Below, in pieces: positions 4,232 to 64,000 of a stretch of DNA of 64,000 nucleotides. Made by a program: the position numbers and the translations under genes. This DNA comes from a virus (Duplodnaviria > Heunggongvirae > Uroviricota > Caudoviricetes): IMG/VR virus record IMGVR_UViG_3300033233_000007, one strand, 5' to 3'. Numbering within the stretch: the first letter of the stretch is position 1; each line of letters starts with the position of its first letter. The notes beneath the pieces are model-generated. The model searched no databases. It was not told the DNA's origin and was given only the letters and a program-made list of their open reading frames with translations.

Positions 4232-4717
4232 TTAACCCAAATGAAGGTTCTTCTTGATCCTGTCGACCTCGGCAGCGCTGGGAGACGACCCTTCGCCACC
4301 ACGACTCCTGGCCAACTGGACCAGGGTGTCTTTTCTCATGTAAAAGGAATCCCGAAGGACGTTGAGCAGACGCTCGGACTCTTCGGCAATCTGCGCCCGA
4401 TGACACAGGTCGCGATAGGTCTCGTCGGACCGCACAACCGCCTTGATGGCGGCCTCGGTCGGCTTCTTCTTTTCTCCTTCGGTTTTCTCACGCTCGGCGA
4501 CCGACAGCGTATACTCAAGCTCGCTGAGTTCGGCATCAACGCGGACGCGGTGCGACCGCGCACGTTCATGGATCACGGCGAACCACGCGTAGAGCGACGC
4601 CTGCCGCCCCAGTTCGAAGTCAATGTCATCGCGGTCGATCTGAAGCTCTTTGGCGAGGTCGAAATTCAGAGTCTCGTCGCCGACGACGATCTTCAAGACG
4701 TGCGTGCGGTCGGGCAT
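4232..4717 (-). CDS. hypothetical protein (161 aa)
   Basis: ORF lying between the SSB-like gene and the polymerase, on the same strand. Confidence 0.45.
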   Translation of the reverse strand: MPDRTHVLKIVVGDETLNFDLAKELQIDRDDIDFELGRQASLYAWFAVIHERARSHRVRVDAELSELEYTLSVAEREKTEGEKKKPTEAAIKAVVRSDETYRDLCHRAQIAEESERLLNVLRDSFYMRKDTLVQLARSRGGEGSSPSAAEVDRIKKNLHLG

Positions 4718-7700
4718 TACGTGGTCTCCGAAAAAGCCGACTTCAAAGCGGCATGGTAGATGCGAGCAAATTTTCTGACGGCGGACTCGAAGACGGATAG
4801 TTGCGCGGGTTCGCGAAGGACCATGTTCGGGTGAATCGCACCCACGACGAGCGCGCCGGCGTCGGTCTTAAACGTGGAGCCGTTGGCTTTGACGATGCTG
4901 CCTTTGCCGCCCACGGCCTCCCACGCCCGTCTGCCCAGCGCGAGAATCAACGAGGGCTTGATCTCGTCGATCTCCTTCTTGAGCCACGGGCACTCGGGCG
5001 TCTTTTCCTCACCGGCGTAGGGCCGGCACTTGAACGCATTCGAGATGACCAGGTGTTCCCTGTTGATTTTGAGATGCTCGAGCAGAGCCATAATCAGTTC
5101 GCCCGACTCTCCGAGGAGGGGCCTTCCGCGCCGATCCTCCACGCGGCCGGGGTCCTGGCCGACGACCATAACGTTCCACTTCCCGACCTCGACGGGCACG
5201 GGGGCGCGACAGAATTTCCTGCGGTCGCATTGGGTGCAGAGCTTCGTCTCTTCGGCGAGCATGGGCACGCGCTTGGCCGGCCGGATTTGAGGAAGCACGC
5301 GGTCGGCGCCCGTCGCGGCGTCGATAAGGCCGCCGGGCAGCTTTCTGAGCTTGAGCCGATCTTTGAACTCGTAGTAATTCTGGTAAGGCCCGTGCGACGA
5401 GCGCTCATCGAAGATGCCTTTAGCGAAGGCCGCCGTGACGCCGGGGATGTCGAGCAGGGCTCGGCGGACGCCGCCGTTTTGCGGCGTCCAGAAAATGTCG
5501 GAGTGGTTGAAGCTGAAGGGCAGAACCTCAACGCCCATTTCCTCCATCTCGTCGAGAAGCTGGCGTTTCATTTCATCGCCCTTCTTGTTCTCCTTGTCTT
5601 CGGCGACGTTAAGCGCGGAGGCGTAAAGGTCGAGCGTGCGATGGCGCTTAAGCCAGCCGATCTGATAAGCCAAGAGCGAGTAGGCCGTGGCGTGGCTTTT
5701 GTTGAACGAATAACGCCCCATCCCCTCAAGCTGATCCCACAGCGCCGCGCCCTCTTCCGCCGTCAGCGTCTTTTGCCGCAGACATCCTTCGACGAACTTG
5801 CTCTTCCATGCAGCGAACGATTGCGCGCCCGTGAGCTTCTTGGCAATGGATTTTCGGACGCCGTCGGCCTCCGTCCACGAGAAGCCGGCGACGCGCGTGC
5901 ACAGCATCATCACGTCTTCCTGGAAGACAATCAACCCGGCAGGGTCCTCGTGATAGCGGTTGGCGAGGCCCGCGGGGTCCGTCTGGCCGAGCCCGCCGGG
6001 ACGGAAGGCCGCATTCGCGAACACCGTGTCTTCGAACTTCGCAGGCTTGAGCATCATGAGAAACGCCTTCATCCCCGACGTGGAGAATTGCGGCGTACCT
6101 GCGGTGCGGCCTTCGGAGAAGTCCGTATAGACGGCGGCATCATCGAGCGGAATCATCGCCAGCGCGCTCTCGAAAGGGGCGAGGATGTCCAGCGTACTGT
6201 TGCCCAGAAGGTCGATCTTCAGATGGCCGATGTCGTCGGCGTCCTGAAGGTCCCAGCAAAGCAGGCCGTTGACCATGTAGCCGCGACCGAGCCCATTTAT
6301 GGGAGAACTGGAAATTACGAATCCACCGGCGTGCGCCCCGGTCTGACGGACTTTCCCGACGAGGCGGTTGGCAAATTCGGCCGCGAGCGTACTGAGCTTT
6401 CGAAGCTCGGCCACGACGGGATGGCCGTCGAGCGTCTTTCGTTCGTCTTCGGCCCAATCCGTTTCCTCATCAGGGTCGTGAAGCTTCACATTTTTCTCAA
6501 GGTCCTTGAGCACGCCGTAAGTGCGGGCCGCGTCGCGGGCGGCTTGGCGAACGCCGTACTTCGAGTACGTCGCGATCTGGGCCACGCGCTCGGCGCCGAA
6601 GACCTCGCTGAGAATTTCGGGAACGCGTCGGCGCACGGCCACAGGCAGATCGAGGTCGACGTCAGGGAGAGAGCCGACTCGTCCTGGGGCGTAGAACCTT
6701 TCGAATATGAGGTCGTGCCTGATGGGATCGAGAATCGAAATGCCCAGAAGGTGCGCCACGAGGCAGCCGCCGACGGAGCCGCGGGGGCCCACGAGCGCCC
6801 CACGCTTCTTGAACTCGTCGACGACTTTCTGCACGAGCAGCAGATACTCCGCGAGGCCGGCTTCGATGAGCGTCTTAAGCTCGTACTCCGCACGGTCGTA
6901 GTATTTCGGTTTGTCGGGGACATTGAGCTTCGAGAGCGCGGCGTCGACGCGTTCGATGAGCACCGTATTAGGATCATCGCAGACCTTGGCGATGGGCAGA
7001 CGGTCGTGCGGGAGGTCCGTGATCTCGCAGCGGTCGGCGATCTCCGCTGTCGTGGCGATGGCGCGAACGGCTTCGTCTTCGGTCAGGCCCGCCTTTTGCA
7101 GGTGCTCGTAGATTTCGCCCGGCGTCATGAGGTAGCTCATCTTCGTCGAGAACTTCCACGCCTTGGGGTCGTCGATGGCCTTCAGATCGGCCACGGCCAA
7201 GAGCGCGTCGTGGAAGGGCTTGTCGGTGGCGCACGCGAAGTGGCAGTCAACGCTCGCCGAAATGGGCCGGTTGAAGTGATCGGCCAACTGGACGACGATG
7301 CGGTTGAGCTTGATCTGCTCGTCCCAGTCGTCGACGGGCATGACCTCGAAATAGAAATCATCGCCGTAGGCCTTGACGAAGGGCTCAAGGTCGTCGATGG
7401 CTTTCTCCGATTTCCAAAACGGTGAACTGTAGCAGCCGGAAAGGACGACGAGACCCGAGCCAGCAGCTTCAAGCACCTTCGCCAGCGGCACGGTCAGGCG
7501 CTTGAGGCGCTTCTTTTCGATGACGCCGGAGCCGAGGATAGAGGAAAGGGCGGCGAAGCCCTTCAAGTCGCGGCAGAGGACCGTGAGGTGGAAAATTTTA
7601 TCGCCGTCATAGGCCGTCGTAACGTAAAGCTCGCACCCCAAAATCGGCTTGATGCCGGTCTTGCGGCAGGAGGCGATGAAGCGGGGGATGCCGCTGATCG

Positions 7701-7827
7701 AGCCGTGGTCCGTGATGGAGCAGGCCGAGAAGCCCGCCGCCTTAGCGAGTGTCGGAAGCTCGTCTACGCGGATCAGGCTGTCGCGGTAGCTGTGATCCGT
7801 GTGGGCGTGTAAGAGCGCGATGTTCAC
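4717..7827 (-). CDS. dnaE: DnaE-type DNA polymerase III alpha (PHP + polymerase core) fused to a C-terminal family-4 uracil-DNA glycosylase domain
   Basis: N-terminal PHP segment MNIALLHAHTDHSY. DnaE core motifs GPRGSVGGCLVAHLLGISILDP and AHAGGFVIS. The C-terminal 150 aa carry a CxxC cluster, GQDPG, GRPLLGESGELI and HPN, which are UDG4-like. Confidence 0.85.
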   Translation of the reverse strand: MNIALLHAHTDHSYRDSLIRVDELPTLAKAAGFSACSITDHGSISGIPRFIASCRKTGIKPILGCELYVTTAYDGDKIFHLTVLCRDLKGFAALSSILGSGVIEKKRLKRLTVPLAKVLEAAGSGLVVLSGCYSSPFWKSEKAIDDLEPFVKAYGDDFYFEVMPVDDWDEQIKLNRIVVQLADHFNRPISASVDCHFACATDKPFHDALLAVADLKAIDDPKAWKFSTKMSYLMTPGEIYEHLQKAGLTEDEAVRAIATTAEIADRCEITDLPHDRLPIAKVCDDPNTVLIERVDAALSKLNVPDKPKYYDRAEYELKTLIEAGLAEYLLLVQKVVDEFKKRGALVGPRGSVGGCLVAHLLGISILDPIRHDLIFERFYAPGRVGSLPDVDLDLPVAVRRRVPEILSEVFGAERVAQIATYSKYGVRQAARDAARTYGVLKDLEKNVKLHDPDEETDWAEDERKTLDGHPVVAELRKLSTLAAEFANRLVGKVRQTGAHAGGFVISSSPINGLGRGYMVNGLLCWDLQDADDIGHLKIDLLGNSTLDILAPFESALAMIPLDDAAVYTDFSEGRTAGTPQFSTSGMKAFLMMLKPAKFEDTVFANAAFRPGGLGQTDPAGLANRYHEDPAGLIVFQEDVMMLCTRVAGFSWTEADGVRKSIAKKLTGAQSFAAWKSKFVEGCLRQKTLTAEEGAALWDQLEGMGRYSFNKSHATAYSLLAYQIGWLKRHRTLDLYASALNVAEDKENKKGDEMKRQLLDEMEEMGVEVLPFSFNHSDIFWTPQNGGVRRALLDIPGVTAAFAKGIFDERSSHGPYQNYYEFKDRLKLRKLPGGLIDAATGADRVLPQIRPAKRVPMLAEETKLCTQCDRRKFCRAPVPVEVGKWNVMVVGQDPGRVEDRRGRPLLGESGELIMALLEHLKINREHLVISNAFKCRPYAGEEKTPECPWLKKEIDEIKPSLILALGRRAWEAVGGKGSIVKANGSTFKTDAGALVVGAIHPNMVLREPAQLSVFESAVRKFARIYHAALKSAFSETT

Positions 7828-7833: not shown

Positions 7834-7852
7834 AGCTATAGTAGTCAGGGCA
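7834..7852 (-). promoter_or_regulatory. phage-type (T7-like) promoter motif CCCTGACTACTATAG, reverse copy facing dnaE
   Basis: Reverse complement of the recurring motif, about 10 nt upstream of the dnaE start at 7827. Confidence 0.5.
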
Positions 7853-7920
7853 TCCGCGTTCACGCCCGAGATTCTGAAAATAGTTCAACGAGTTTCGGAT
7901 TTGCGGCCGCGAACATGGAA

Positions 7921-7937
7921 GGGCCGACTACTATAGC
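7921..7937 (+). promoter_or_regulatory. phage-type promoter motif GGGCCGACTACTATAG
   Basis: Resembles ssRNAP promoters (T7 CGACTCACTATAG). It lies 8 nt upstream of the ATG at 7945. Confidence 0.5.
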
Positions 7938-7944: not shown

Positions 7945-9342
7945 ATGGAGATCGTCGTCGACAACGTCCTGAGCTACGTGAATGGCACGAAAGACGAATA
8001 CCGCGCCCTCGACAAGCTCCTGGCCGTGGAAGTCAAAAACGCATTCTGGATCAAGCAGCATACGCCTCAGTTCGACGGCATGTGGCACGCCTTCAACCGC
8101 CTTCGCGGCAGCTTTCCGACGGGACTGATCGGGCGCGTGCGGAAGGGGTTCCCCCTCGCCAAAATTCATGACCGCCGCGTGAAGCCACGGATCATCATGC
8201 AACCGAAACCCGACATGCTCAAGACGATAACGCTGGCGGACTTTCAACTGGACGCGATCACGGCGGCACTTCATCACGGGCGCGGCGTGCTGGCCTTGGC
8301 CGTGAATTCCGGCAAGAGCGCGTGTGCCACGGCGATTTCGCTCTGCGTCGCCGGCCGCACGCTCTGGCTCGTCCACCGCAAGGACCTCATGTACCAATCG
8401 GCGGAAATGTACGAGCAGTACACGGGGCAGAAACCCGCGCGGTTCGGCGACCACATCTACGAGGATATCACGACCCGCGCCGTCACCATCGCCATCGTCC
8501 AGGCTATCAATCTGGCGCTCGACGGTCAGAAAAATATGCTCGAGGGCTTCTCGACACTCATACTCGACGAGGGGCACGCACTAGGGCCCCCTAAGCGTTT
8601 TTATAAAGTCGCGCAGTTCTGCCCCGCTTACGTCAGGATCGCCATGAGCGGTACACCTTGGAACCCAAAAGACCCCGAGCGCAATCTCAAGCTCGAGGCG
8701 ACGACGGGGCCCGAAATCGCCAAGATTAAATCCTCCAAGCTCATCGAGATCGGATGGAGCGCGCGGCCGACAATGTTCTACCACGACGGCTTCGGCGGCG
8801 CCCGCAGCTTCGGACCATGGGCCGAGGCGCGACGCACGGTCATCGAAGACTGCCCGAACCGTAATCGCATTGTCCTGGCCGTCGCGCGCAAAGCCGCAGA
8901 GGAGGGCAAGGCGTGCCTTATCATGTGCGACACGATCCGCCATTGTCGCATGATCTGCGATCACCTCGTCGAACTCAATCTCGACGCAAAGCTCGTCACA
9001 GGCCAGCATAAGGGAAAAGACCGCGTCGAGGTCCGGCAGAACTTCCGCGCGGGCATCGTACCGATCGTCGTTTCGAGCCCAACTTGGGACGCCGGAATTA
9101 GCATAGAAAATATCAGAATTCTCGTCATCGCCGCCGGAGGCGAGTCCGCCCAGCGCTATCTGCAACGCGTGGGCCGCGGCATGCGTATCATGAAAAATAA
9201 AACCGCCGTCGAAATCCACGACTTCGTCGACGGCGGCTCCAAGCACACGCTCAAGCACACGATCTCGCGGATCAAGACGGCGCGAGACGAGGGCTTCGAG
9301 ATCGTCGAGGTCGATCATTCCAAGGAGACGGCCAATGCCTGA
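7945..9342 (+). CDS. SF2 DNA/RNA helicase (DEGH box)
   Basis: Motifs AVNSGKS, LILDEGH, SGTP and QRVGRGMR. Confidence 0.8.
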   Translation: MEIVVDNVLSYVNGTKDEYRALDKLLAVEVKNAFWIKQHTPQFDGMWHAFNRLRGSFPTGLIGRVRKGFPLAKIHDRRVKPRIIMQPKPDMLKTITLADFQLDAITAALHHGRGVLALAVNSGKSACATAISLCVAGRTLWLVHRKDLMYQSAEMYEQYTGQKPARFGDHIYEDITTRAVTIAIVQAINLALDGQKNMLEGFSTLILDEGHALGPPKRFYKVAQFCPAYVRIAMSGTPWNPKDPERNLKLEATTGPEIAKIKSSKLIEIGWSARPTMFYHDGFGGARSFGPWAEARRTVIEDCPNRNRIVLAVARKAAEEGKACLIMCDTIRHCRMICDHLVELNLDAKLVTGQHKGKDRVEVRQNFRAGIVPIVVSSPTWDAGISIENIRILVIAAGGESAQRYLQRVGRGMRIMKNKTAVEIHDFVDGGSKHTLKHTISRIKTARDEGFEIVEVDHSKETANA

Positions 9343-13539: not shown

Positions 13540-14388
13540 TTGCAAAATCCACGAGCGTGTGTCTTGACTCTCTACCAGGGAAGACGTAAAGTGATCTCGC
13601 TACCACGATGCTTAACTCCCACGATCCGTGCCGGCGCCCTCACTTTAGCGTCGTTGGTAGCACTTCACGTCAGTATGAGGCCCGGCGCGGTTCATGGGAG
13701 TTTGGAGGCGTGCGTGAAAGCGATACCGCTTACGCAGGGCAAGTTCGCGTGGGTAGATGATGCGGACTTTGAGAAGTTGTCGACGCTCAAGTGGGGCGCC
13801 TTAAAAGGCAGGCGCTACTGCTGGTACGCGAGGCATGTCGTGAAGATGGGTCAGAAAATCGGCGCAGTCTTGATGCACCGAATGATCTTGAGCGCTCCCT
13901 CGGGTTTCGAAGTTGACCACATCGACGGAGACGGGCTGAACAACACGCGAAAAAATTTGCGGCTTTGCACCAGTTCGCAAAATAAGCACAACTTTCCTAA
14001 GTTTCGCAACGGGTCGTCAAGGTACAAGGGCGTCTCGTGGAGCAAGCATTCTAAAAAGTGGAATGCTCAGATCGTGCGCCGCCATCTCGGGCTCTTCTCC
14101 AACGAACGTGCCGCTGCCCGTGCGTATGATAAGGCGGCCATGAAGATGTTCGGCAAGTTCGCCAGAGTGAATTTTAACGGGCCGTTGAAGACGGGTCCGA
14201 CCGCCAAGCAGTTCGAGCGGGAGGCACGCCGCTATGATTTGGCGGCTCGGTTCGCCATATCAAAACATGACGGAAGTCGGTTTTGTTCTTACGCTCGAGA
14301 GCTTCGTAGGCAGGCGAAGATCGTGTGTGGATCGAAGCCTTTAGCGCCCATGAAGACATTTTTCCGGGAAACTAGACGGAAAACTTGA
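13540..14388 (+). CDS. HNH-AP2 homing endonuclease (true start probably the GTG/ATG near 13717)
   Basis: HNH_3 segment IPLTQGKFAWVDDADF...VDHIDGDGLNNTRKNLRLCTSSQN. AP2 segment YKGVSW...AARAYD. Confidence 0.75.
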   Translation: MQNPRACVLTLYQGRRKVISLPRCLTPTIRAGALTLASLVALHVSMRPGAVHGSLEACVKAIPLTQGKFAWVDDADFEKLSTLKWGALKGRRYCWYARHVVKMGQKIGAVLMHRMILSAPSGFEVDHIDGDGLNNTRKNLRLCTSSQNKHNFPKFRNGSSRYKGVSWSKHSKKWNAQIVRRHLGLFSNERAAARAYDKAAMKMFGKFARVNFNGPLKTGPTAKQFEREARRYDLAARFAISKHDGSRFCSYARELRRQAKIVCGSKPLAPMKTFFRETRRKT

Positions 14389-17392: not shown

Positions 17393-17483
17393 AAAAAGAA
17401 CCGTGATGAACTACAGTAGTCTTCTCTCTCCAGAGCCGGCGAGGAATGCGCGACCGCCATATCCCTTCCTGCCGGTGCGCCTC

Positions 17484-19765: not shown

Positions 19766-20799
19766 TGCCGTTCGCGCTTTTCGGACAGACGCGCGTCGCA
19801 AGCGCTTCTCCCGCTTCCGTTGAAGCCGTCAATGGCTATTGGGATATCGTGCGGGACGCCAACGCGCTTCGTGCAGATGTCTCGTCAATCTTGGGCGGCC
19901 CCGACTCGACTAAGGCGTTGGCGGAGCTTGCGGTTCGCTCTGAAGTTCTGGCCCGTCAGCTTACTGCGCTATCGGGCGTCGCTGATGGGCTCAACGAATC
20001 TTCTCTCTCTTCCGCTCGGGCTGCGGCGCAACAGGCATTTGCCGCATCCCTCCGTGTCGTCGAATCCGCGTTGTCGCCGAAAGCGCTGAAGCGTTTCCGC
20101 GACAACCGGAACAACACGCGCCGGAAAGACGCGTGGGGGCCGATGGGTCGTGGCATCGGCGCTTTTCGCTCGATCACCGCCGGCGGCGATAAGACGAAAA
20201 AGAAACTTGGACTAACTCGCTCGTCTCCTACTAAGGCGGCTCCGCCCTCCATCGGGCCTGACGTCATCCTTGACGGTACGGGTAAATACGGGTCTCCTGA
20301 CACGTTGTACTTGCGCTCGATGATGGTACAGAAGTACGACCCAATGACGGGCGTGGCGTTGCCGATCATCTACGGCCTTGCCCCGTTGCCGCAGCAGTAT
20401 TCGGCGTACACGCAGAGATCGGGTCTTAAAGTAATCAGTGGGTCGTCCTATGTCGGGTTCACCAAGCTCAAAAAGCCGGCGGTTCCGCCCCCGGCTCCAC
20501 GGGAATTGCGCGGCAACCACTGGGTCTACAAAGGTGCGACCGACACGCTCTATGTCGAGAAGGGGTGGTCGCATCCTATGTGGGAAACGCCGCCGCAGTT
20601 CGAAACGCACCAAATCAACGATGTTGAGGAGGTCGTCGAGGGCAAATTGCATACGCCGTTTCGACGCGGTGTGCCGGAGCAACCTCCGACCGTCGCGCCG
20701 CCGTACGCGACGATCTCGACCGTTCTGCCTTCCATTCCATCAAGGCCGCCGTCGCCGCCGCCTCTGCGGCCCGGCTACACCGTCGCCGTCAGGAGATAA
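19765..20799 (+). CDS. hypothetical protein
   Basis: ORF. Confidence 0.45.
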   Translation: MPFALFGQTRVASASPASVEAVNGYWDIVRDANALRADVSSILGGPDSTKALAELAVRSEVLARQLTALSGVADGLNESSLSSARAAAQQAFAASLRVVESALSPKALKRFRDNRNNTRRKDAWGPMGRGIGAFRSITAGGDKTKKKLGLTRSSPTKAAPPSIGPDVILDGTGKYGSPDTLYLRSMMVQKYDPMTGVALPIIYGLAPLPQQYSAYTQRSGLKVISGSSYVGFTKLKKPAVPPPAPRELRGNHWVYKGATDTLYVEKGWSHPMWETPPQFETHQINDVEEVVEGKLHTPFRRGVPEQPPTVAPPYATISTVLPSIPSRPPSPPPLRPGYTVAVRR

Positions 20800-20802
20800 T
20801 GT

Positions 20803-22888
20803 CGTGGCCTTCCTAACCACACAAGGCCTTCGTCGAAGCGAGCCCATGCCGGCGCCGTGGCGGTTGCCCCTTGCCGCGAGGCCGCCGGTCTACACGGAGT
20901 TTTTGTCGCAGCCGATGAATGGTCAGCTTTATGGATTCGGGCAACCTGAGCCGCCGTCGAAGGAACAAGTCGCCCGCCGTGACCGCGAAGCCGCATTGAC
21001 GCGGGCCCGCATTGACGCGGTGGCTGCCCCGCTCGGCGAGATCATTTCATTGATCGAAGAAATAATGGACATTGCGGACGACGTGAAGCTTCTCAATCAG
21101 CCCCGTATCAAAGACCAAATCGCCAAATGTCCACGGCTTCAGGAGTTCTTGACCGATCTCGGAAAATTGCGCGAGAGGGCTGCCGGACTTCTGATCGCCG
21201 CTTCCGTCGTCGACGGTCTCGGAATTTACGATCAGTGGCGCTCCGGTAAGTCAGAGGTCGGCGCATATTGGCGGAATTTGGCCGCACGCGTGCGTAAGGT
21301 GGTTGACCGCTGGGGTGCTACGGCGACGAAGCTGACCGGCCAAGGAATTTTCACGGGCGCCTCGGACGCCGACGCGCAGGTTAAATTGCTCACGCACGGG
21401 CAGTCGCAAGCGGCCTTGAAAGAGTCCGCGTCGACCGGCATCTCGCTTTACATGGGACTCGTGCTCGACAGCGTGACACCGAAGCTCGAAGCGATGCTTC
21501 CTGGCATACGAGTGATAAAGTCGAAAATCGACGCCAACCGATCGACTATCGACAAAATCCGAAGCATGCCCGCAGGACTGGCGCGGGGGTTGGCCGCGAA
21601 CGTCGCCGGTGCCATTGCGTGGCAACAGTTTTTGGCGAGTATGGAGTGTGCGGGGCTGGAGTCGGCGGCGAAAGTCGGCTACAGCGTCGGCAAAGCTGCG
21701 GCGGAAGCTTCGATGATCTCATCGCCTCAAGTTGCCCGCGCCCCCGCTGCGCTTCCGCCACCCGTGGCAATGCCGGCGGTCCGCGCCCCCGTGTCGGCGG
21801 GAGCCGCGTTCTTGCCGCCGTACGTGCCTTCGATGATGGAGCGTGGTTTGCCGCCTGTGCGAGCGGGAGAAGGAAATGATAAGCCGAAGCCGAAAGTGAC
21901 GTGGGGAGATTTGCTGAAGAAGGGGGTGGCGTATTTAGAACCGTTTAAGCATGCTCTTGAAGAAGGGGACGAAGCCAAGAAATCTAAGAAGATGGCTGAC
22001 GTAGAGATCGACAACATCCACAAGATCGTAAAATCGGGCGACCGGATCAATTGTACGAAGGCGCTGGGAAAGCTTTCGGCCATCTTCAAGTTGTTCCAGA
22101 ACGCGGCCGATCACGCCAAAAACGCCGTCATGATCTTGGAGGCAAACGCCTCAAAAATACCGGACCAGGCGCTTAGGGACCTATTGGATGTTCAGATTCC
22201 ACAAATTGTTGACGCTCTCCGCGCAGCCGAACAGTACCGTGATGGCTTGAACTATTTGATCGAGAAGGGGGAAGTCATATGGTACGACGGCTATCCCATG
22301 TTGGACGAGACCGCGACTGGAGAGTTTCGGGCTCACGCCAGCAGCCTTTTGAATATTCGCCAAACGCTCACCTCTGCGCTTGTCCAGGCCCAGTCCATGG
22401 CGCTACCGCGCGGCAGATTTGCTTACACCGATGCTCAGAAAAAGGTTCGCATGTCTAGGTGGTGGGATTGGTCTACGGCCATGAACGTGTCGGCCGAGGG
22501 CGATGTTAAGGAGCAGATTGACAAGTTTTTGCTCTCGGTTGTCGGAGAACTTGGCGGCAAGCGAACGCTCGCAAGAATTTGCGCCAGCGTCGCGTACATC
22601 GGCGGGATGTTCCTTTTTCTTACAAAGTCGGTGAAGGAGCTTTATAAAGAGTTTGCCCCCAAGCCCGTGCAGAAATTTTTCGAGCCGATCCTGCCCGTGA
22701 GCCGCGCCGTGCCGCCCCCCACGGCGCCGACGGCTTACGCCCCGCCCGCCTACGCCCCGCCCGCCTATGCGCCGTTGCCCGCTGTAGCGCCGTCGCAACC
22801 GCCAATCGCGATCATGACGCCGTCGATCTCGCTGCCCACGAGGCCGTATTATTCCGTCGCCGGCATGGGGACATTTTTGTCGGTATGA
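20803..22888 (+). CDS. large hypothetical protein (about 695 aa) with (APPAY)n C-terminal repeats; possibly a virion or internal protein
   Basis: ORF with a GTG start after an AGGAG RBS. It has one TM segment and PPAYAPPAYAP repeats. Confidence 0.45.
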
Positions 22889-29658: not shown

Positions 29659-29695
29659 TGCTTGACTCTTTGCTTACAGATTGTACACTGTCGTT

Positions 29696-30898
29696 GTGAA
29701 AGTTCGCTACCGTTTTCGCTTTTACCCATCCGACGAACAGAAATTCGAGCTTGCCCGCGTCTTCGGCGCCTGCCGGTACATCTACAACTGGGCGCTTCGG
29801 ATGCGCACGGACGCCTACTATAAGGACGGCGTCTCCGTCGGGTACTGCGAATCCAGCACCCGGCTCACCGCGCTCAAACGCGATCCCGAACACGCCTGGC
29901 TCAACAAGACTTCCTGCGTTCCCACGCAACAGGCGCTTCGCCACCTCCAGACGGCGTTCGTCAACTTCTTCGAGAAGCGTAGCGCATATCCGAAGTTCAA
30001 GCGTAAGGACGGTGAGCAGTCTGCCGAGTACACAAGGTCCGCGTCCAAGTGGGACGCTAAGAACCGTAACCTCGAACTCTCTGGCCTCGGAAGACTCAAG
30101 GTCCGCTGGTCCCGCAACTTCAAAACTCCTCCGACCACCATCACCGTAACCAAGGACACGGCGGAACGCTACTTCGTCACGCTCTGTCTGGACGAGACGG
30201 TTTTGAAGCTCGAACCCGTTCACAAAGCCGTCGGCATTGACCTCGGCATCATGGCTCTCGCCACCCTTTCCACAGGCGAGAAAATCGAGAATCCGCGGCA
30301 CCTGATCCGTGCCCAAGCCGCGCTCACCCACGCCCAGCGCGATCTGTCCCGTAAGTCCAAAGGATCGAACCGGCGTGCCGCTCAAAAGCTCAAGGTCGCC
30401 AAGCTTCACGCCCACGTCGCCGACGCCAGAGTCGACTACCTGCATAAAATCACCACTGATCTCGTGCGCCGTTTCGACGTGATCGCCGTCGAGAACTTGA
30501 ATGTCCGCGGCATGGTTAAGAACCACAACCTTGCCCGCGCTTTGAGCGACGCGGCCCTCGGCGAGTTCCTGTCGATGATCCGGTACAAGTGCGAATGGTA
30601 CGGACGCGAGCTTCGGACGGTGGACCGTTTCTACCCGTCCACGAAGCGATGCTTCGACTGCGGACACGTTCTGGAGGAACTTGATCTCGGTTGCCGCGTC
30701 TGGACGTGTCCCGAGTGCGGCAAGGAGCATGATCGCGATGTGAACGCCGCGAAGAATATTCTGGCGGCCGGACAGGCCGTGACTGCGCGTGGAGGGAAGG
30801 TAAGACCTAAGCGGGACAGTCACCGCAAGGGCGCATCCCTGAGAAGCGCGAACCATCTTGAAGCTACGCATATAGTTTCAGGAATCCCCGGACTTTAG
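29696..30898 (+). CDS. tnpB: TnpB (IS200/IS605-family OrfB, RuvC-like + zinc finger)
   Basis: N-terminal RYRFYPSDEQ...YNWAL and a C-terminal CFDCGH...WTCPECGKEHDRDVNAAKNI. Confidence 0.8.
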   Translation: MKVRYRFRFYPSDEQKFELARVFGACRYIYNWALRMRTDAYYKDGVSVGYCESSTRLTALKRDPEHAWLNKTSCVPTQQALRHLQTAFVNFFEKRSAYPKFKRKDGEQSAEYTRSASKWDAKNRNLELSGLGRLKVRWSRNFKTPPTTITVTKDTAERYFVTLCLDETVLKLEPVHKAVGIDLGIMALATLSTGEKIENPRHLIRAQAALTHAQRDLSRKSKGSNRRAAQKLKVAKLHAHVADARVDYLHKITTDLVRRFDVIAVENLNVRGMVKNHNLARALSDAALGEFLSMIRYKCEWYGRELRTVDRFYPSTKRCFDCGHVLEELDLGCRVWTCPECGKEHDRDVNAAKNILAAGQAVTARGGKVRPKRDSHRKGASLRSANHLEATHIVSGIPGL

Positions 30899-34918: not shown

Positions 34919-34993
34919 TAGGCGCGGCTGGATTTGCACCAGCAAGCCGCCCGGTTTAAGCAGGCGAGGTATACTAATTCCCGTCACGCGCCC
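34919..34993 (-). tRNA. tRNA, anticodon UAA (Leu-type anticodon, class I structure, weak D-arm)
   Basis: Hand-folded cloverleaf. Acceptor GGGCGCG/CGCGCCT, anticodon arm GCCUG-CUUAAAC-CGGGC, T-arm GCUGG-UGCAAAU-CCAGC. Confidence 0.35.
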
Positions 34994-34995
34994 GT

Positions 34996-35071
34996 TGGTA
35001 TCCCCGCCCGGAGTCGCGCCGGGTTCTGCGCCTTCGGAGGGCGCCGTGTTTCTATCGTACACCACGGGGAC
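34996..35071 (-). tRNA. tRNA-Arg(CCG)
   Basis: Hand-folded cloverleaf. Acceptor GUCCCCG...CGGGGAU-A-CCA, anticodon loop CUCCGAA. Confidence 0.55.
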
Positions 35072-35125
35072 GCTCTTAAAGAAAACGGCCGTTTCCTTTA
35101 AGAGCGTTTCGAGCTTTCAAAGAGC

Positions 35126-35201
35126 GTTTGAAAAATGGTATCCCCGCGTGGACTCGGACCACGACTTCCGCCTTCGTAGGGCGGCGCTCTGTCCAATTGA
35201 G
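35126..35201 (-). tRNA. tRNA-Arg(ACG)
   Basis: Canonical cloverleaf. D-arm GCUCAAUUGGACAGAGC, anticodon loop CUACGAA, CCA encoded. Confidence 0.75.
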
Positions 35202-35232
35202 CTACGGGGACATCGTACTGTCAAAGAGCGAA

Positions 35233-35308
35233 TGGAACCCTCGGCGGGAGTTGCACCCGCATGATCCCGTTTAGGAAACGGGTGCCTCTTCTTTTCGGCC
35301 ATGAGGGC
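35233..35308 (-). tRNA. tRNA-Arg(CCU) (weak; overlaps the 3' end of the HNH ORF)
   Basis: Acceptor has one mismatch. Anticodon arm CCCGU-UUCCUAA-ACGGG, T-arm GCGGG-UGCAACU-CCCGC. Confidence 0.35.
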
Positions 35309-35897
35309 CATGGTTTCCAAAGAACGTACCTCCGGCGGCCCAGTTCCCAAACAGTCCAAGTTTTCGTGCTGCACGCATTCCGCCAACTACTTTAAGCCAC
35401 GCCTTGTACGGCATATCGCGCCGTGTCCAATTGCATCTGATGCAAGCGGGAACGACGTTGTCGCGGACGTGGCCCTTGGTATTGTCGATGCGATCAAGTG
35501 AAATCTTCATGTCTGATGGCGTTGCCCCACAATAAACGCATCCGCGTGAGATTGAGTCGCGCACAAAATCTCTGGTCAAGTCGAACAGAAGTCCTCGTTT
35601 TCTGTCTTCATCTCTAGCATCCTTCATTATGAGGAAGTCGCGATTTATGCCGAGACGTCTCCATCTCCTGAGTTTGGCTTTGTACTTAGCTTGTTTCCGG
35701 GTATAGGCTACCGGCGACGTTCGCCGCTTCCCCCGTAAGGTGTTGTCGCACGCCTTACATCGTGTTCGAGGCCACCGTTTTCCGTTCACAATTCGCTCGT
35801 AGAACATGTCTACTGGCTTGGGCCTCTTACACAACGTACAGCGTTTATGGTCGGACATAGTTCCGACCATAGTAGTGAACGGTGGTGGGGACTTCAA
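35271..35897 (-). CDS. HNH homing endonuclease inserted in the tRNA array
   Basis: HNH core CVYCG...ISLDRIDNTKGHVRDNVVPACIRCN. Start probably MVGTMSDHK. Confidence 0.7.
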   Translation of the reverse strand: MKSPPPFTTMVGTMSDHKRCTLCKRPKPVDMFYERIVNGKRWPRTRCKACDNTLRGKRRTSPVAYTRKQAKYKAKLRRWRRLGINRDFLIMKDARDEDRKRGLLFDLTRDFVRDSISRGCVYCGATPSDMKISLDRIDNTKGHVRDNVVPACIRCNWTRRDMPYKAWLKVVGGMRAARKLGLFGNWAAGGTFFGNHGPHGRKEEAPVS

Positions 35898-35919
35898 GGA
35901 ATTTGACCTTGAAGTCCCC
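35887..35919. repeat. 13-bp-stem hairpin GGGGACTTCAAGG-aatttga-CCTTGAAGTCCCC
   Basis: Direct reading. It lies between tRNA-Pro(CGG) and the HNH start. Confidence 0.8.
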
Positions 35920-35920
35920 G

Positions 35921-35994
35921 TCGGAGTCTCCGGACGTGCGCCGGGCCTATGCCTGTTCCCGAAACAGGTGGGGCGCTATCTCCCCATGACTCCG
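35921..35994 (-). tRNA. tRNA-Pro(CGG) (non-canonical T-loop)
   Basis: Acceptor CGGAGUC/GACUCCG, D-stem GGGG/CCCC, anticodon loop UUCGGGA. Confidence 0.45.
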
Positions 35995-36003
35995 GTCAAA
36001 GAA

Positions 36004-36074
36004 TCGGCCCGCCGGGATTCGCACCCGGATCAAGCTCTTATAAAGAGCCCGTTCTACTGTTGAACTACGAGCCG
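36004..36074 (-). tRNA. tRNA, anticodon UAU (Ile-type)
   Basis: Hand-folded cloverleaf. D-arm GUUCAACAGUAGAAC, anticodon loop UUUAUAA, T-arm CCGGG-UGCGAAU-CCCGG. Confidence 0.5.
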
Positions 36075-36075
36075 A

Positions 36076-36151
36076 TGGTCAGGGCGGCGGGACTCGCACC
36101 CGCGGTCTCCACGTCCCAAGCGTGGCGCGTTGGCTGCTACGCTACGCCCTG
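36076..36151 (-). tRNA. tRNA-Pro(UGG)
   Basis: Full cloverleaf. Anticodon arm CCACG-CUUGGGA-CGUGG, CCA encoded. Confidence 0.7.
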
Positions 36152-36152
36152 A

Positions 36153-36239
36153 TGGTGCGCTTGAGAGGATTTGCACCTCCACGAGTTTTACCTCACCGGC
36201 CCCTCAAGCCGGCGCGTCTGCTGGTTCCGCCACAGGCGC
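36153..36239 (-). tRNA. tRNA-Leu(GAG) (class II, long variable arm)
   Basis: Anticodon arm CCGGC-UUGAGGG-GCCGG with a 14-nt variable arm. CCA encoded. Confidence 0.6.
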
Positions 36240-36244
36240 GAAAT

Positions 36245-36330
36245 TGGTGGGCCCGAGAGGGTTTGCACCTCTACGCTTATTAGGCACCGGCTTCTGAGAC
36301 CGGCGTGTCTGCTAATTCCACCACGGGCCC
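36245..36330 (-). tRNA. tRNA-Leu(CAG) (class II)
   Basis: Anticodon loop CUCAGAA with a long variable arm. Acceptor GGGCCCG/CGGGCCC. Confidence 0.6.
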
Positions 36331-36331
36331 G

Positions 36332-36405
36332 TGCCCTCGACAGGATTCGCACCTGCATGCCGACGCTTTTGAGGCGTCGAGGTCTTCTAGTTGCCTCACG
36401 AGGGC
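36332..36405 (-). tRNA. tRNA, anticodon CAA (Leu-type anticodon but class I structure)
   Basis: Acceptor GCCCUCG/CGAGGGC is perfect. Anticodon arm GACGC-CUCAAAA-GCGUC, T-arm GCAGG-UGCGAAU-CCUGU. Confidence 0.4.
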
Positions 36406-36441
36406 GTGAGAATCTGTTTCTCAAAGAACGATCCGACTCCA

Positions 36442-36516
36442 TGGTGGCCCCGCTGGGACTCGCACCCAGGTCTCCTGCTTAAGAGGCAGGCCGTCTAGCT
36501 GCTGACATACGAGGCC
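36442..36516 (-). tRNA. tRNA-Lys(CUU)
   Basis: Anticodon arm CCUGC-CUCUUAA-GCAGG, T-arm CUGGG-UGCGAGU-CCCAG. CCA encoded. Confidence 0.65.
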
Positions 36517-36520
36517 GTCA

Positions 36521-36595
36521 TGGGGTCGGCGGGAATCGAACCCGCGTGAAGCTCGGTTAAAAGCCGAGTGCAAAGCCAGCGTTTGCTACGACCCC
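36521..36595 (-). tRNA. tRNA-Lys(UUU)
   Basis: Acceptor GGGGUCG/CGACCCC. Anticodon arm CUCGG-CUUUUAA-CCGAG, T-loop UUCGAUU. Confidence 0.6.
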
Positions 36596-36636
36596 TTGGA
36601 TTTGCCGTCGCGTTTCAAGCGACACCTCCTGAAAAA

Positions 36637-36710
36637 TGGCAGCCCGCCGCGGATTCGCACCGCGATCCTGACTTTGAAAAAGTCATATCCTGCTCTTAGA
36701 CGAGCGGGCC
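36637..36710 (-). tRNA. tRNA-Glu(UUC)
   Basis: Anticodon arm UGACU-UUUUCAA-AGUCA, T-arm CGCGG-UGCGAAU-CCGCG. CCA encoded. Confidence 0.6.
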
Positions 36711-36866
36711 ATCAGTGGGCGTAGCGGGGGAGCATCTTGCGCATACTCATCGGGAACCTGACCCTACTCTGGGCGGGTCTTTGCCAGCTAACCGCTTACC
36801 CTCGGGAGGCTTGGCCCGATCCCTTTGCGCCAGTGCTGGCAGCCCCCGCGCTTCGCCCACTAAAAT
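36711..36866 (-). ncRNA. about 150-nt structured non-tRNA element closed by long-range helices (GTGGGCG/CGCCCAC and GGGGG/CCCCC)
   Basis: No ORF and no cloverleaf could be built. Complementary termini at 36714-36735 and 36842-36862. Strand is assumed from the surrounding tRNAs. Confidence 0.3.
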
Positions 36867-36941
36867 TGGTACCCCGAAGGAGAGTCGAACTCCCGTTTTC
36901 GCCTTGAGAGGGCGGTGTCCTGGCCGCTAGACGACCGGGGC
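36867..36941 (-). tRNA. tRNA-Glu(CUC)
   Basis: Anticodon arm CCGCC-CUCUCAA-GGCGA, T-arm GGGAG-UUCGACU-CUCCU. CCA encoded. Confidence 0.6.
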
Positions 36942-36942
36942 A

Positions 36943-37017
36943 TGGAACCCACGGAGGGAATTGCACCCTCATGACCGATTTAGAGGATCGGCGTCCTGTC
37001 TGTTGAACGACGTGGGC
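36943..37017 (-). tRNA. tRNA-Arg(UCU) (C33 in the loop)
   Basis: Anticodon arm CCGAU-CCUCUAA-AUCGG, D-stem GUUC/GGAC. CCA encoded. Confidence 0.5.
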
Positions 37018-37018
37018 A

Positions 37019-37097
37019 TGGCTCCGGCGGCAGGAGTCGGACCTGCGACTGCCCGCTTAACAGGCGGGTACCTCAAACCGACAGAGGCATCACCGGA
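37019..37097 (-). tRNA. tRNA-Asn(GUU)
   Basis: Anticodon arm CCCGC-CUGUUAA-GCGGG, T-arm GCAGG-UCCGACU-CCUGC, with a long D-loop. Confidence 0.55.
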
Positions 37098-37098
37098 G

Positions 37099-37172
37099 TG
37101 GAGCCGCCGACCCGAATTGCACGGGCATCTGAACTTTACGAAAGTTCTGTTCTGCTGTTGAACTACAGCGGC
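37099..37172 (-). tRNA. tRNA-Thr(CGU)
   Basis: Anticodon arm GAACU-UUCGUAA-AGUUC, D-arm GUUCAACAGCAGAAC. CCA encoded. Confidence 0.6.
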
Positions 37173-37173
37173 A

Positions 37174-37250
37174 TGGAGGCCGCGGCGTGACTTCCACACG
37201 CTACATCCGCCTTTGCAGGGCGGCGCTTCGTATACTTTGGCTTCGCGGCC
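37174..37250 (-). tRNA. tRNA-Cys(GCA) (weak D-arm)
   Basis: Acceptor GGCCGCG/CGCGGCC. Anticodon arm CCGCC-CUGCAAA-GGCGG. Confidence 0.5.
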
Positions 37251-37271
37251 GTGAATCGGCAGATGGATGGA

Positions 37272-37363
37272 TGGCGGAAGGTGAGGGAGTTGCACCCCCG
37301 TCGCCCTTGCGAGGCGCACGGTTTAGCGGACCGTCCCGGCGAACTGTCATCCGGCTACCTTCC
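37272..37363 (-). tRNA. tRNA-Ser(GCU) (class II)
   Basis: Acceptor GGAAGGU/ACCUUCC. Anticodon arm ACGGU-CCGCUAA-ACCGU with an 18-nt variable arm. Confidence 0.6.
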
Positions 37364-37364
37364 G

Positions 37365-37450
37365 TGGGGGAGGGCAACGGAATTGCACCGTCACGCGAGA
37401 TGCGCGGTCCAGTTTTCGAGACTGGTTGGGCACTGCGCCCACTGCCCTCC
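37365..37450 (-). tRNA. tRNA-Ser(CGA) (class II)
   Basis: Anticodon arm CCAGU-CUCGAAA-ACUGG with a 16-nt variable arm. D-stem UGGG/CCCA. Confidence 0.6.
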
Positions 37451-37458
37451 GTGAAATT

Positions 37459-37532
37459 TGGTCCCGGCGGGTGGAGTCTCACCACCGTTTCATCTTCATG
37501 AGGGATGCGTCTTGATCTTAGACCACACCGGG
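37459..37532 (-). tRNA. tRNA-Met(CAU), elongator-type
   Basis: Anticodon loop CUCAUGA, T-arm GGUGG-UGAGACU-CCACC. CCA encoded. Confidence 0.55.
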
Positions 37533-37533
37533 A

Positions 37534-37608
37534 TGGAGCCGCCGGTCCGAGTTGCACGGACATGAACCTGTTTACAGGACAGGGGCCTTGCTGTTAGGCG
37601 ACGGCGGC
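37534..37608 (-). tRNA. tRNA-Thr(UGU)
   Basis: Acceptor GCCGCCG perfect. Anticodon arm CCUGU-CCUGUAA-ACAGG, T-arm GUCCG-UGCAACU-CGGAC. Confidence 0.6.
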
Positions 37609-37645: not shown

Positions 37646-37766
37646 TGGAAAACGGTTGACCGGACTACGCGCGCTACGCCGGGTCGTTTTCTCGTGCGGA
37701 GGGTACTGCCCCCTCGTCTCCGGCTCTCACGGCGTCGTTTAATCCGACGCCATGAGAGAAGGAGAA

Positions 37767-37840: not shown

Positions 37841-37841
37841 A

Positions 37842-43516: not shown

Positions 43517-43588
43517 CTGTTTTTGCGATGAGTCATGAACTGATAACCTGGCCACGAAAATTTTCAGAATCTCGCCCGCGAACGCAGA

Positions 43589-43606
43589 TGGCCTGACTAC
43601 TATAGT
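43589..43606 (+). promoter_or_regulatory. phage-type promoter motif GGCCTGACTACTATAG
   Basis: Same motif as at 7921 and 63728. It lies 21 nt upstream of the ATG at 43627. Confidence 0.5.
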
Positions 43607-43626
43607 AAGGTAGGACGATCCGCACC

Positions 43627-44772
43627 ATGCCCGACATCAGCCCCCACATCACGGTCAACAAGGACGACGTTCATAGCTTCGTCATCGATTCGATCCTGCT
43701 TGAGAATGTACGCACGGAAAAGCTCGTCTTCGCTGCGCACTGGAACGCGTCCATGAAAAACGGCGGCGACAAATTCCATCAAGCGTGTGAAATTGCGCGC
43801 AAGATCGGAACTCCGCGTTTCGTCGGGACGCACGGCAATTACGCGGACGGGCTCGTCCTGCGCGACCAGTCCGTCGTGAAGCTCTGGATCGGAAAGAAGC
43901 TCGACGTTGAAGTTTGGGCCAAGACGCAGGAAGATGCTACGAAAGAGGTACAGGCAATCCGAAAGATTGTCGAGCCCTATCTCATCACCCCTGAAAACGA
44001 GTCCGGGATCAGCGTGACCTTCTGGAACTCGAACACGAAGGGAGATGTCAAGCAGAACGAGCGCATCATCGCGTGTCCTTCATGGCAGGAAATCCGCGAG
44101 AACTACGGCTCTTCCGTCCAACCGGACATCGAGTCTCTGGTGGCAATGAAAAAGCCGTGGGAGGCCGGGAAGATCATTTTCTGGTCTGGGCCGCCGGGCA
44201 GCGGGAAAACTTTTGGAATTCGTTCTCTAATTCGTGAGTGGCACGGCGTTGTTGAACCGAACTACATCATGGACCCGGAGACGTTCTTCAGCGACGCGCA
44301 GTATATGAGCGAGGCCGTGATGACGACGAGCAATAAGTTTGACGAGGATGGGGATAGCAAGCCGTCGACGGCCGGCAAACTCTTCATCATCGAGGACATG
44401 CCCGATCTCATCCTGACGAAAACTCGCCTGACCCGTTGCGCCGAAATGGCCCGACTCCTGAACCTCTCCGACGGCTTTATCGGCCAGGGTTTTAACGCCA
44501 TCTTCCTCCTGACGACGAACGAGGACGTCCACGACGTCGACCCTGCGTTTCTCCGCGATGGCCGCATCCTTCAGCAGACAGCGTTCACGAAGTTCAACAT
44601 GTCGGCAGCGAAGGCGTGGCTCGGCAATCGCGGGATCGCCGCTGACCGCGCCGACGCCGCCATCTGCGGAGAGATGACGCTGGCCGAGCTTTACGCGGTG
44701 CTGCGGGGCAAGAGGCCCAAGTCCCATGTGAAAGACCGCAAGGTCGGCTTTGCCGTGGAGAAATCGTCATGA
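43627..44772 (+). CDS. AAA+ ATPase
   Basis: Walker A GPPGSGKT, Walker B LFIIEDMPD and sensor LLTTNE. Confidence 0.75.
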   Translation: MPDISPHITVNKDDVHSFVIDSILLENVRTEKLVFAAHWNASMKNGGDKFHQACEIARKIGTPRFVGTHGNYADGLVLRDQSVVKLWIGKKLDVEVWAKTQEDATKEVQAIRKIVEPYLITPENESGISVTFWNSNTKGDVKQNERIIACPSWQEIRENYGSSVQPDIESLVAMKKPWEAGKIIFWSGPPGSGKTFGIRSLIREWHGVVEPNYIMDPETFFSDAQYMSEAVMTTSNKFDEDGDSKPSTAGKLFIIEDMPDLILTKTRLTRCAEMARLLNLSDGFIGQGFNAIFLLTTNEDVHDVDPAFLRDGRILQQTAFTKFNMSAAKAWLGNRGIAADRADAAICGEMTLAELYAVLRGKRPKSHVKDRKVGFAVEKSS

Positions 44773-53515: not shown

Positions 53516-53543
53516 TTGACAACGCTGTACGTCTTACTATAAT
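53516..53543 (+). promoter_or_regulatory. consensus sigma70 promoter TTGACA-N16-TATAAT
   Basis: Direct reading, 6 nt upstream of the ATG at 53550. Confidence 0.6.
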
Positions 53544-53549
53544 GTCCGC

Positions 53550-63655: not shown

Positions 63656-63727
63656 GTCGGCGCCGAAGCGGCCGATCTTCGAGTCTGCGGTCATCGGGCC
63701 GTCCATGTAGTTTCCGATTCTCGACCT

Positions 63728-63745
63728 CGAACGCATGGGGCCTGA
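63728..63745 (+). promoter_or_regulatory. phage-type promoter motif GGCCTGACTACTATAG
   Basis: It lies 42 nt upstream of the ATG at 63787 and is followed by a TTTTTAGGAGAGG RBS. Confidence 0.5.
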
Positions 63746-63786
63746 CTACTATAGCAGGGTAGAGGCACATTTTTAGGAGAGGCACA

Positions 63787-64000
63787 TGAAGATCGTCAGT
63801 CCGCTTCGCGTCGGTTCCGTCGTGTTGATCCGCACGGTGACGAACTATTACACGGGCGAGATTGCGCTGCTTTCGCCGTCGGAGATCGTGCTGAAATCCG
63901 CGGCATGGATCGCCAGTACGGGCCGGTACGCCGCGGCGCTCGAGAAGGGAACGCTGGACGAAGTGGAGCCGTATCCGGGTACCGGGGTCGTGTCGGTCAG
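63787..64000 (+). CDS. hypothetical protein (partial; continues beyond the window); inverted duplicate of 965..1240
   Basis: Translation MKIVSPLRVGSVVLIRTVTNYYTGEIALLS... is identical to the minus-strand protein at the left end. Confidence 0.5.

Follow-up and report, generated by a model that had tools for sequence, protein, structure and literature searches.

A gapless cassette of approximately 57 nt, present eight times in about 84 kb of a large uncultivated Caudoviricetes genome, is very probably a phage-specific promoter. This assignment is made because the copies are intergenic, co-oriented and placed before operons, and because a homologous architecture occupies the same position in five related phages. 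The DNA analysed was a stretch of 64,000 nt (the window) together with a 20-kb left flank from the same genome (L125). A sequence-only reading of the window had proposed a recurrent, oriented, intergenic motif serving as a phage-specific promoter. The eight co-oriented copies before genes bear this out, and the observation is stronger than first described, with eight copies, a unit of ~57 nt and an architecture that is conserved across a phage family.

The core 11-mer GACTACTATAG occurs exactly four times in the window, at 7836-7846 (-), 7926-7936 (+), 43595-43605 (+) and 63744-63754 (+), and the claim of four copies, each upstream of a start codon, was thus recovered as exact matches at four sites. 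The 10-mer ACTACTATAG was observed four times in the window against 0.01 expected (100 dinucleotide shuffles), and an independent repeat search of the window returned the same motif family. A search for further copies beyond the window, as the earlier reading had suggested, found four more in the left flank, one of which has GGCTAC in place of GACTAC, giving a total of eight in ~84 kb. All eight are intergenic and lie on the same strand as the next gene. When the eight sites are combined into a weight matrix, they score 67-88 bits and everything else in the window and L125 scores 18 bits or less; the gap between these scores indicates that the cassette sites are a discrete class, and the cassette was found nowhere else in the sequence read. 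The copies in the window, and one possible degenerate core, are as follows.

7836..7879, minus strand: promoter copy 1, with T-rich box TTTCAGAATCTCG at 7879-7867, GAAC at 7861-7858 and core GCCCTGACTACTATAG at 7851-7836.
7893..7936, plus strand: promoter copy 2, with box TTTCGGATTTGCG at 7893-7905, GAAC at 7911-7914 and core GGGCCGACTACTATAG at 7921-7936.
43562..43616, plus strand: promoter copy 3, with box at 43562-43574, GAAC at 43580-43583, core GGCCTGACTACTATAG at 43590-43605 and the conserved downstream sequence taAGGTAGGA.
63711..63785, plus strand: promoter copy 4, with box at 63711-63723, GAAC at 63729-63732 and core at 63739-63754.
17411..17428, minus strand: possible degenerate core GAGAGAAGACTACTGTAG, like the GAGAAGAyTAC cores of related phages; status uncertain.

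Copies 1 and 2 are arranged back to back with their final G's 100 bp apart, confirming the divergent pair that had been reported between dnaE (4717-7827, minus strand) and the helicase gene (7945-9342, plus strand). Copy 1 faces dnaE, the GTG start of which (7827) lies 8 nt past the final G, and copy 2 faces the helicase gene, with its ATG at 7945 likewise 8 nt past the final G. Copy 3 lies directly downstream of a terminator-like hairpin (43497-43513) and is followed by the ATG of an AAA ATPase gene at 43627, 21 nt past the G. Copy 4 is followed by a 31-nt conserved leader, cagGGTAGAGGCAcaTTTTTAGGAGAGGcac, and then by an ATG at 63786; copies 4, 7 and 8 (the latter two outside the window) have the entire leader in common, down to the Shine-Dalgarno sequence. 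Measured from the G of TATAG, the distances to the start codon are 8, 8, 21 and 31 nt, replacing the 8-42 nt originally given. Three of the four coordinate ranges first reported for the motif were within 1-2 nt of those found here, whereas the fourth (63728-63745) was ~10 nt off, GGCCTGACTACTATAG being located at 63739-63754. The 'optional T' that had been written into the motif is a substitution and not an indel, as the copies align without gaps (GGGCCGAC versus GGCCTGAC). The degenerate core GAGAGAAGACTACTGTAG has neither the GAAC nor the T-rich box and scores below the threshold. It is situated in the intergenic region between the primase gene and a 181-aa gene, on the antisense strand, and may be a relic or an antisense promoter.

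The operons behind the eight copies fall into replication, packaging and accessory classes, and the genes that follow the window copies are listed below.

4717..7827, minus strand: gene for DnaE (DNA polymerase III alpha) with a C-terminal uracil-DNA glycosylase (UDG) fusion, downstream of copy 1.
7945..9342, plus strand: SF2 helicase gene (ResIII/Helicase_C), downstream of copy 2.
43627..44772, plus strand: AAA ATPase gene, downstream of copy 3.
44783-45994, minus strand: TnpB-like gene, between the AAA ATPase gene and the terminase-like gene.
47222-49915, plus strand: terminase-large-like ATPase gene with an intein, farther downstream of copy 3.
63786..64000, plus strand: small gene, start only (the window ends inside the gene), downstream of copy 4.

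The DnaE-UDG protein contains PHP, pol3 alpha, finger and HhH domains and a C-terminal family-4-type UDG. Its gene heads a leftward replication operon that includes genes for a 161-aa protein and gp32-like, RecA-like and SbcD-like proteins, while the helicase gene heads a rightward replication operon with a DinG-like helicase, a C5 methylase, an exonuclease and RepB-primase/AAA_25. The replication genes in the window thus comprise the DnaE-UDG fusion, two helicases, the C5 methylase, the exonuclease and RepB-primase/AAA_25. Only the C-terminal part of the 897-aa ORF at 47222-49915 matches a terminase large subunit family, and a LAGLIDADG homing-endonuclease domain lies at residues 282-370; given this domain, the ORF probably encodes a packaging ATPase with an intein.

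The window is part of the genome of a member of a phage family defined by the DnaE-UDG fusion. An ENA contig of 63,019 bp (k141_4033767) is identical to positions 1004-64022 in window numbering, and a second of 81,259 bp (k141_1337675) extends the genome leftward of the window; the genome is therefore ~144 kb or more. A JGI contig of 125,798 bp carries an identical DnaE. The sequence read for this phage, the 64-kb window and the 20-kb flank, amounts to ~84 kb or ~58% of the genome. The remaining ~60 kb, together with 39 kb of the contig of one relative (L041), is expected to hold the virion module. A near-identity search (~85% or more) of 8 kb against the INPHARED phages gave no match, and protein searches with DnaE, the primase and the helicase found distant phages only, at most ~32% identical. 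A motif scan with 17 specified bases over IMG/VR and JGI metagenome contigs returned only single chance matches in unrelated GC contexts, and the only matches to the motif in the literature were mistyped T7 primers. The lineage is one without a close cultured or sequenced relative. The gene behind copy 4 (63786-64000, plus strand) is an inverted duplicate of a 91-aa gene at 965-1240 on the minus strand, with 97% identity over 215 nt (1026-1240) and a separation of 62.5 kb. Both ends of k141_4033767 break inside this inverted duplicated gene, and both public assemblies end at it. A second short inverted match (605-656/63660-63711) adjoins the duplicated copies. The two gene copies could allow the 62.5-kb segment between them to invert, or they could mark a structure at the genome ends.

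The conserved unit far exceeds the 16-mer of the earlier reading. It consists of TTTCnGAwTyyCG, 7 nt, GAAC, 6 nt and GGCCyGACTACTATAG, often followed by yAGGTAGrAG, and conservation reaches ~44 nt upstream and ~11 nt downstream of the final G (gapless alignment of four copies; eight-site matrix). With that G as +1, GAAC is invariant at -25..-22, the T-rich box occupies -43..-31 and the register is fixed in all eight copies. A contiguous invariant block from -15 to +1 ends in TATAG, and the initial transcribed sequence is purine-rich. The conserved blocks alternate with variable spacers of fixed length and contain no gaps, which therefore argues for constraint rather than recent duplication. 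Folding the eight copies as single strands gave no common stem or hairpin (z-scores of -2.6 to +1.1), and an Rfam search over the window identified tRNAs only, with no family at the motif. A hairpin promoter of the N4 virion-RNAP type was ruled out, as the promoter strand has no conserved hairpin, and a structured-RNA reading was ruled out by the lack of a shared hairpin and of an Rfam family. A sigma54 promoter (GG-N10-GC; TGGCAC-N5-TTGC) was also rejected: 10 nt after the GG of GGCC comes AT and not GC.

At least 15 metagenomic DnaE-UDG fusion proteins with 39-51% identity were found, one of them (L028) binned into a Nitrospiraceae MAG. We examined ~23 kb around dnaE in seven members, L024/L039, L025, L028, L037, L038, L041 and L042; for L024, L028, L037, L038, L041 and L042 the DnaE identity to the window phage is 40-51%. 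The divergent arrangement of helicase and dnaE is kept in all seven, and each helicase/dnaE intergenic region contains two outward-facing copies of a core that is specific to that genome. These cores vary from genome to genome around (G/A)N(Y)TAC.

L024 core: G(G/A)TTACTAT(A/G)AG.
L028 core: GCTGAGAAGAyTAC(A)TrG.
L038 core: CCGAGAAGA..CTACTTrG.
L041 core: GAGAAGAnTACCT.
L042 core: GAGAAGAAGGTCTwAT.
L037 core: GGGGAGGAAGTArrG.
L025 core: ygtGTAGATG.

Additional core copies precede other genes in the relatives. The GAGAAGA cores are not ribosome-binding sites, as genes preceded by other copies, at a distance of 20-43 nt, possess a GGAGG themselves. An AT-rich box like TTTCnGAATCTCG of the window is present at a similar upstream distance in most relatives and is not evident in L025; in L041 (GGAATTTCATGAAATTCC) and L037 (TTTCGAATTCTCGAAA) the box is a perfect or near-perfect central palindrome common to both divergent promoters. 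The GAAC box is not conserved in L024, the closest relative, so that a bipartite reading of the cassette is based on one genome. TATAG is likewise not conserved in relatives with the same architecture, which have TACCTCAT, TACATGG and TACTTAG. At both promoters of L041 and at P2 of L028, an ATG follows 5 nt after TAC with no Shine-Dalgarno sequence, and N-terminal homology to the window proteins supports these ATGs as the true starts. Transcription in these relatives must therefore start at or right after the core, which would give leaderless mRNAs. For the window phage, we infer from the sequence that transcription would start between the G of TATAG and ~8 nt downstream; the placement of the start in the relatives would allow initiation close to the TATAG G.

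The leaderless starts also bear on whether the cassette is a promoter at all. It could instead be a directional repeat with a role in regulation or translation, for example a stoperator or start-associated sequence, or a replication or recombination site. The motif is asymmetric and intergenic, shares the direction of transcription and is found near start codons; there is an integrase-family gene in its vicinity in L125, and three copies share the full leader to the Shine-Dalgarno sequence. The stoperators and start-associated sequences of mycobacteriophages are similarly asymmetric, transcription-oriented intergenic repeats near gene starts, but they are ~13 bp in length and number tens per genome, whereas the cassette is ~57 nt and sits at positions where promoters are required. 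These include the divergent pair, which is found exactly where two opposed operons each need a promoter and where there is no other promoter-like site. Start codons follow at variable distances of 8 to 31 nt, and the motif is therefore not a ribosome-binding signal. With no consistent hairpin in either strand, no Rfam family and the same architecture abutting leaderless starts in relatives, a function other than that of a promoter is very unlikely.

What reads the promoter is less certain. The sequence-only reading took the motif to imply a T7-like single-subunit RNA polymerase encoded by the phage, with initiation at the G of TATAG; as its gene is not in the window, it would have to lie in the unread part of the genome. 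The resemblance of the core to T7 promoters stands in part. Positions -6..+1 (ACTATAG) are identical to the T7/SP6/K11 consensus, and the strict, contiguous block from -15 to +1 that ends at the presumed start and the purine-rich initial region are both shared with the T7 group (T7, T3, SP6, K11). The promoter cores of T7, T3 and SP6 differ between related phages and are invariant within a genome; the cores of the present family behave in the same way, being related but distinct between relatives, and the conserved core abuts the start site in relatives. The likeness does not extend upstream, where -17..-7 as a segment is without a match in the window-phage motif: 7 of the 17 positions upstream of +1 match T7, a single one of them beyond -6, and the specificity region at -12..-8 is out of register, with GACT shifted by one base. 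A T7-type promoter spans 23 bp, from -17 to +6, and nothing would be expected to be conserved upstream of it, but GAAC at -25..-22 and the T-rich box at -43..-31 are strictly conserved as discrete boxes to about -44. We know of no single-subunit RNAP footprint that reaches either position. The loss of TATAG in relatives that share the architecture is also at odds with a T7-like enzyme.

The gene content points the same way. Pfam searches were made with the coding-like window ORFs that were examined, and Pfam annotation of the ENA gene calls covered both window ends and the 20-kb flank. No single-subunit RNAP was identified in the 64-kb window, the 20-kb left flank, ~23 kb from each of six relatives or the 66 kb read from the L041 contig; there was no PF00940 match and no ORF with T7 motifs A, B or C in the sequence searched. 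The earlier statement that the window itself holds no such gene was therefore upheld by the Pfam and T7-motif searches, and the proposed search of the rest of the genome returned none in the 20-kb left flank either (with the window, ~84 kb of ~144 kb). Searches of all six reading frames gave nothing relevant, either for T7 motifs A, B and C or for DxDGD, a motif of two-barrel polymerases. PHROGs scans added no polymerase, and neither the ~84 kb of the window phage nor the 66 kb read from the L041 contig contained a multisubunit RNAP. Window ORFs of at least 600 aa without an explanation were not polymerase-like. Three large ORFs were considered individually and set aside as polymerase candidates: an 816-aa ORF at 20438-22888 is of low complexity and structural-looking with a spurious N-terminus, the 897-aa ORF is the terminase-like ATPase with an intein, and a 903-aa ORFan of L024 has a start that looks methyltransferase-like by eye (with no family match) and no homologue in the window. 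PDB sequence searches with four small conserved ORFans returned nothing, and the 39-105 kb portion of the 106-kb IMG/VR contig of L041 encodes a reverse transcriptase, a Ser/Thr kinase, M16 peptidases and ORFans, with no RNAP or sigma factor.

The ~144-kb window phage, with 28 tRNA genes, genes on both strands and no single-subunit RNAP in ~58% of its genome, is also unlike the T7 group, and no phage with a single-subunit RNAP is known to have a genome of this kind. Approximately 60 kb of the genome lies outside the searched sequence and could accommodate the gene. Nevertheless, the promoter anatomy to about -44, the loss of TATAG in relatives and the gene content in ~60% of the genome weaken the T7-like reading; the motif does not by itself imply such an enzyme, and on the sequence at hand we consider one unlikely.

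Host transcription was assessed from the sigma70-type sites in the same genome. The promoter at 53516..53549 (+) is a perfect 12/12 match (TTGACA-16-TATAAT) with an ATG 6 nt later, and opens a run of small genes (Phage_ABA_S, Clp_N domain, N6/N4 methylase) that extends over 10 kb as far as copy 4. A second, at 41094-41121 (+), matches at 11/12 positions. The two sites support the earlier claim that host sigma70-type promoters coexist with the motif; of the individual sites then named, 53516 stands, while 40276 and 42885 are weak (9/12), and 41094 had been missed. At 53516-53549 (+), 41094-41121 (+) and L125 1958-1986 an ATG lies within 5-6 nt of the promoter, and the host-transcribed genes of the window phage therefore also appear, as far as sequence can indicate, to be leaderless.

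The cassette is not itself a host sigma70 promoter, as there is no TTGACA-like hexamer 16-18 nt upstream of TACTAT. A consensus scan found no sigma70 site at copies 3 and 4, and by inspection the hexamer 17 nt upstream of TACTAT is CCCGCG-like in all four window copies. A phage protein might nevertheless compensate for the missing element. At the T4 middle promoters (MotA/AsiA) and Mu promoters (Mor/C), an activator replaces the -35 contact; T4 middle promoters combine a MotA box at -30 with a sigma70 -10 element, an arrangement known as sigma appropriation. In the present case the host sigma70 holoenzyme would use TACTAT as its -10 element (TAnnnT), with a phage activator at GAAC or the T-rich box. 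TACTAT has T-12, A-11 and T-7 in the window phage and L024, conserved boxes lie 14 and ~23 nt upstream although there is no -35 hexamer, and the palindromic box between the divergent promoters of L041 and L037 is as expected for a dimeric DNA-binding protein. The T4 middle and SPO1 gp28 or gp33/34 promoters share with the cassette a phage-specific upstream box in place of the host -35 and an association with replication-type genes of a large phage, beside host-type early promoters. They differ in that the present family does not preserve TAnnnT in its -10-like sequence: among relatives, T, A and G all occur as the sixth base of the TA-hexamer, and the hexamers of L041, L028 and L038 (TACCTC, TACATG and TACTTG) have no T-7. 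An ATG 5 nt after TAC in relatives is too close for a -10 element, sigma70 contacts leave the invariant C and T within TACTAT and the flanking GAC unexplained, and no MotA, AsiA or gp28 homologue was detected. Activation of the host sigma70 holoenzyme is accordingly rated as improbable.

The reading that we prefer, tentatively, is that the cassette is read by the host RNA polymerase carrying a phage-specified sigma-like factor. The host multisubunit enzyme and a sigma-type specificity factor would together recognize (C/G)GAAC in the manner of a -35 element and, after exactly 16 nt, ACTA(TAG) in the manner of a -10 element, with the T-rich box farther upstream serving as an UP-like or factor-binding element. 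Promoters of the ECF type have an AAC-containing -35 element, a 16-17-nt spacer and a short -10 element. The bipartite layout of ECF and phage-sigma promoters is seen in all eight copies, as (C/G)GAAC-N16-ACTA without length variation, and conservation in a fixed register to about -44 is typical of a holoenzyme plus factor. The mRNAs of dnaE and the helicase would be near-leaderless, with short leaders containing a Shine-Dalgarno sequence elsewhere; initiation 6-9 nt past ACTA would give the dnaE and helicase transcripts leaders of only a few nucleotides, which fits the leaderless starts in relatives.

A close parallel is Salmonella phage 7-11, in which eight late promoters of the form GTAAtg-(16)-aCTA have been mapped experimentally and are served by the host RNAP with the phage ECF-like sigma factor gp47, with starts 6-9 bp downstream (PMC8948821). 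The window phage resembles it in having a bipartite element with an AA-containing upstream part, a 16-nt spacer and ACTA, in having a similar number of copies per genome (~8; here eight in ~84 kb) alongside sigma70 promoters (early in 7-11), and in the start expected 6-9 nt downstream, which would again give nearly leaderless dnaE and helicase mRNAs. Unlike in 7-11, the spacer and flanks of the cassette are strongly conserved and there is an extra T-rich box ~20 nt upstream. The two phages are unrelated, with no near-identical DNA (roughly 85% or more) in INPHARED. They also differ in that 7-11 encodes gp47, whereas no sigma gene was found in ~84 kb of the window phage.

That difference counts against a sigma-type factor: a Pfam search, including Sigma70_r2/r4, of the ORFs of the ~84 kb examined found no gene for a sigma-like or other transcription factor, and 66 kb of the L041 contig contained no sigma factor. 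An ECF-like sigma would normally match Pfam Sigma70_r2/r4; divergent phage sigmas can escape Pfam. In addition, the invariant -15..+1 block and the genome-specific cores fit single-subunit RNAP promoters equally well. A polymerase or specificity factor of an unknown kind, reading a long composite promoter (T-rich box, GAAC and core) to produce leaderless mRNAs, would explain why no T7-type RNAP, multisubunit RNAP or recognizable sigma factor occurs in the 84 kb or in 66 kb of a relative. A large ORFan or a virion protein of the structural module would be a candidate for such a factor, which we regard as a long shot.

The finding is solid and ordinary in kind, a phage-specific promoter consensus of a familiar class. 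The motif provides a transcription map (operon starts, near-leaderless replication genes) for an uncultivated, tRNA-rich phage lineage of ~144 kb, and the cassette is a compact tool for tracing the factor that recognizes it. If that factor is a phage sigma, a new pair of promoter and sigma factor would join those of the phiEco32/7-11 kind; should it be a T7-type enzyme, this would be an unusual genome for one, and possibly the source of a new orthogonal promoter/polymerase pair.

Several other features were recorded during the analysis. In the 106-kb relative IMGVR_UViG_3300031576_000008 (L120 10001-11032, L126 5862-7403 and L120 4613-7087) we observed genes for a reverse transcriptase (RVT_1), a Ser/Thr protein kinase fused to TPR repeats, M16 peptidases and an 824-aa Cys-rich ORFan with no family match. 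The 28 tRNA genes of the window (34919-39446) are all on the minus strand, between plus-strand gene blocks; they cover most amino acids and include several Leu, Arg, Ile, Pro, Lys, Glu, Thr and Gln isoacceptors. A tandem array at 706-937, directly downstream of the left duplicated 91-aa gene, contains ~19 copies of a 12-nt unit (GACCGCGACCAC) and also shows an 18-nt periodicity, with 88-90% matches; all of its frames are open and would encode Thr/Pro-, Trp/Ser/Arg- or Val/Gly/Ala-rich repeats. Several HNH endonuclease genes are present in the window (for example, 13540-14388). The genes at 29681-30898 (+) and 44783-45994 (-) match PHROGs 'transposase' families (phrog_506), which we take to be of the TnpB/IS605 type. 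A 131-nt inverted match (83%; 30785-30915/51621-51751) pairs the end of the first of these genes with a site at 51.6 kb, which suggests, from its sequence and position, the ends or remnants of IS elements within the phage genome.
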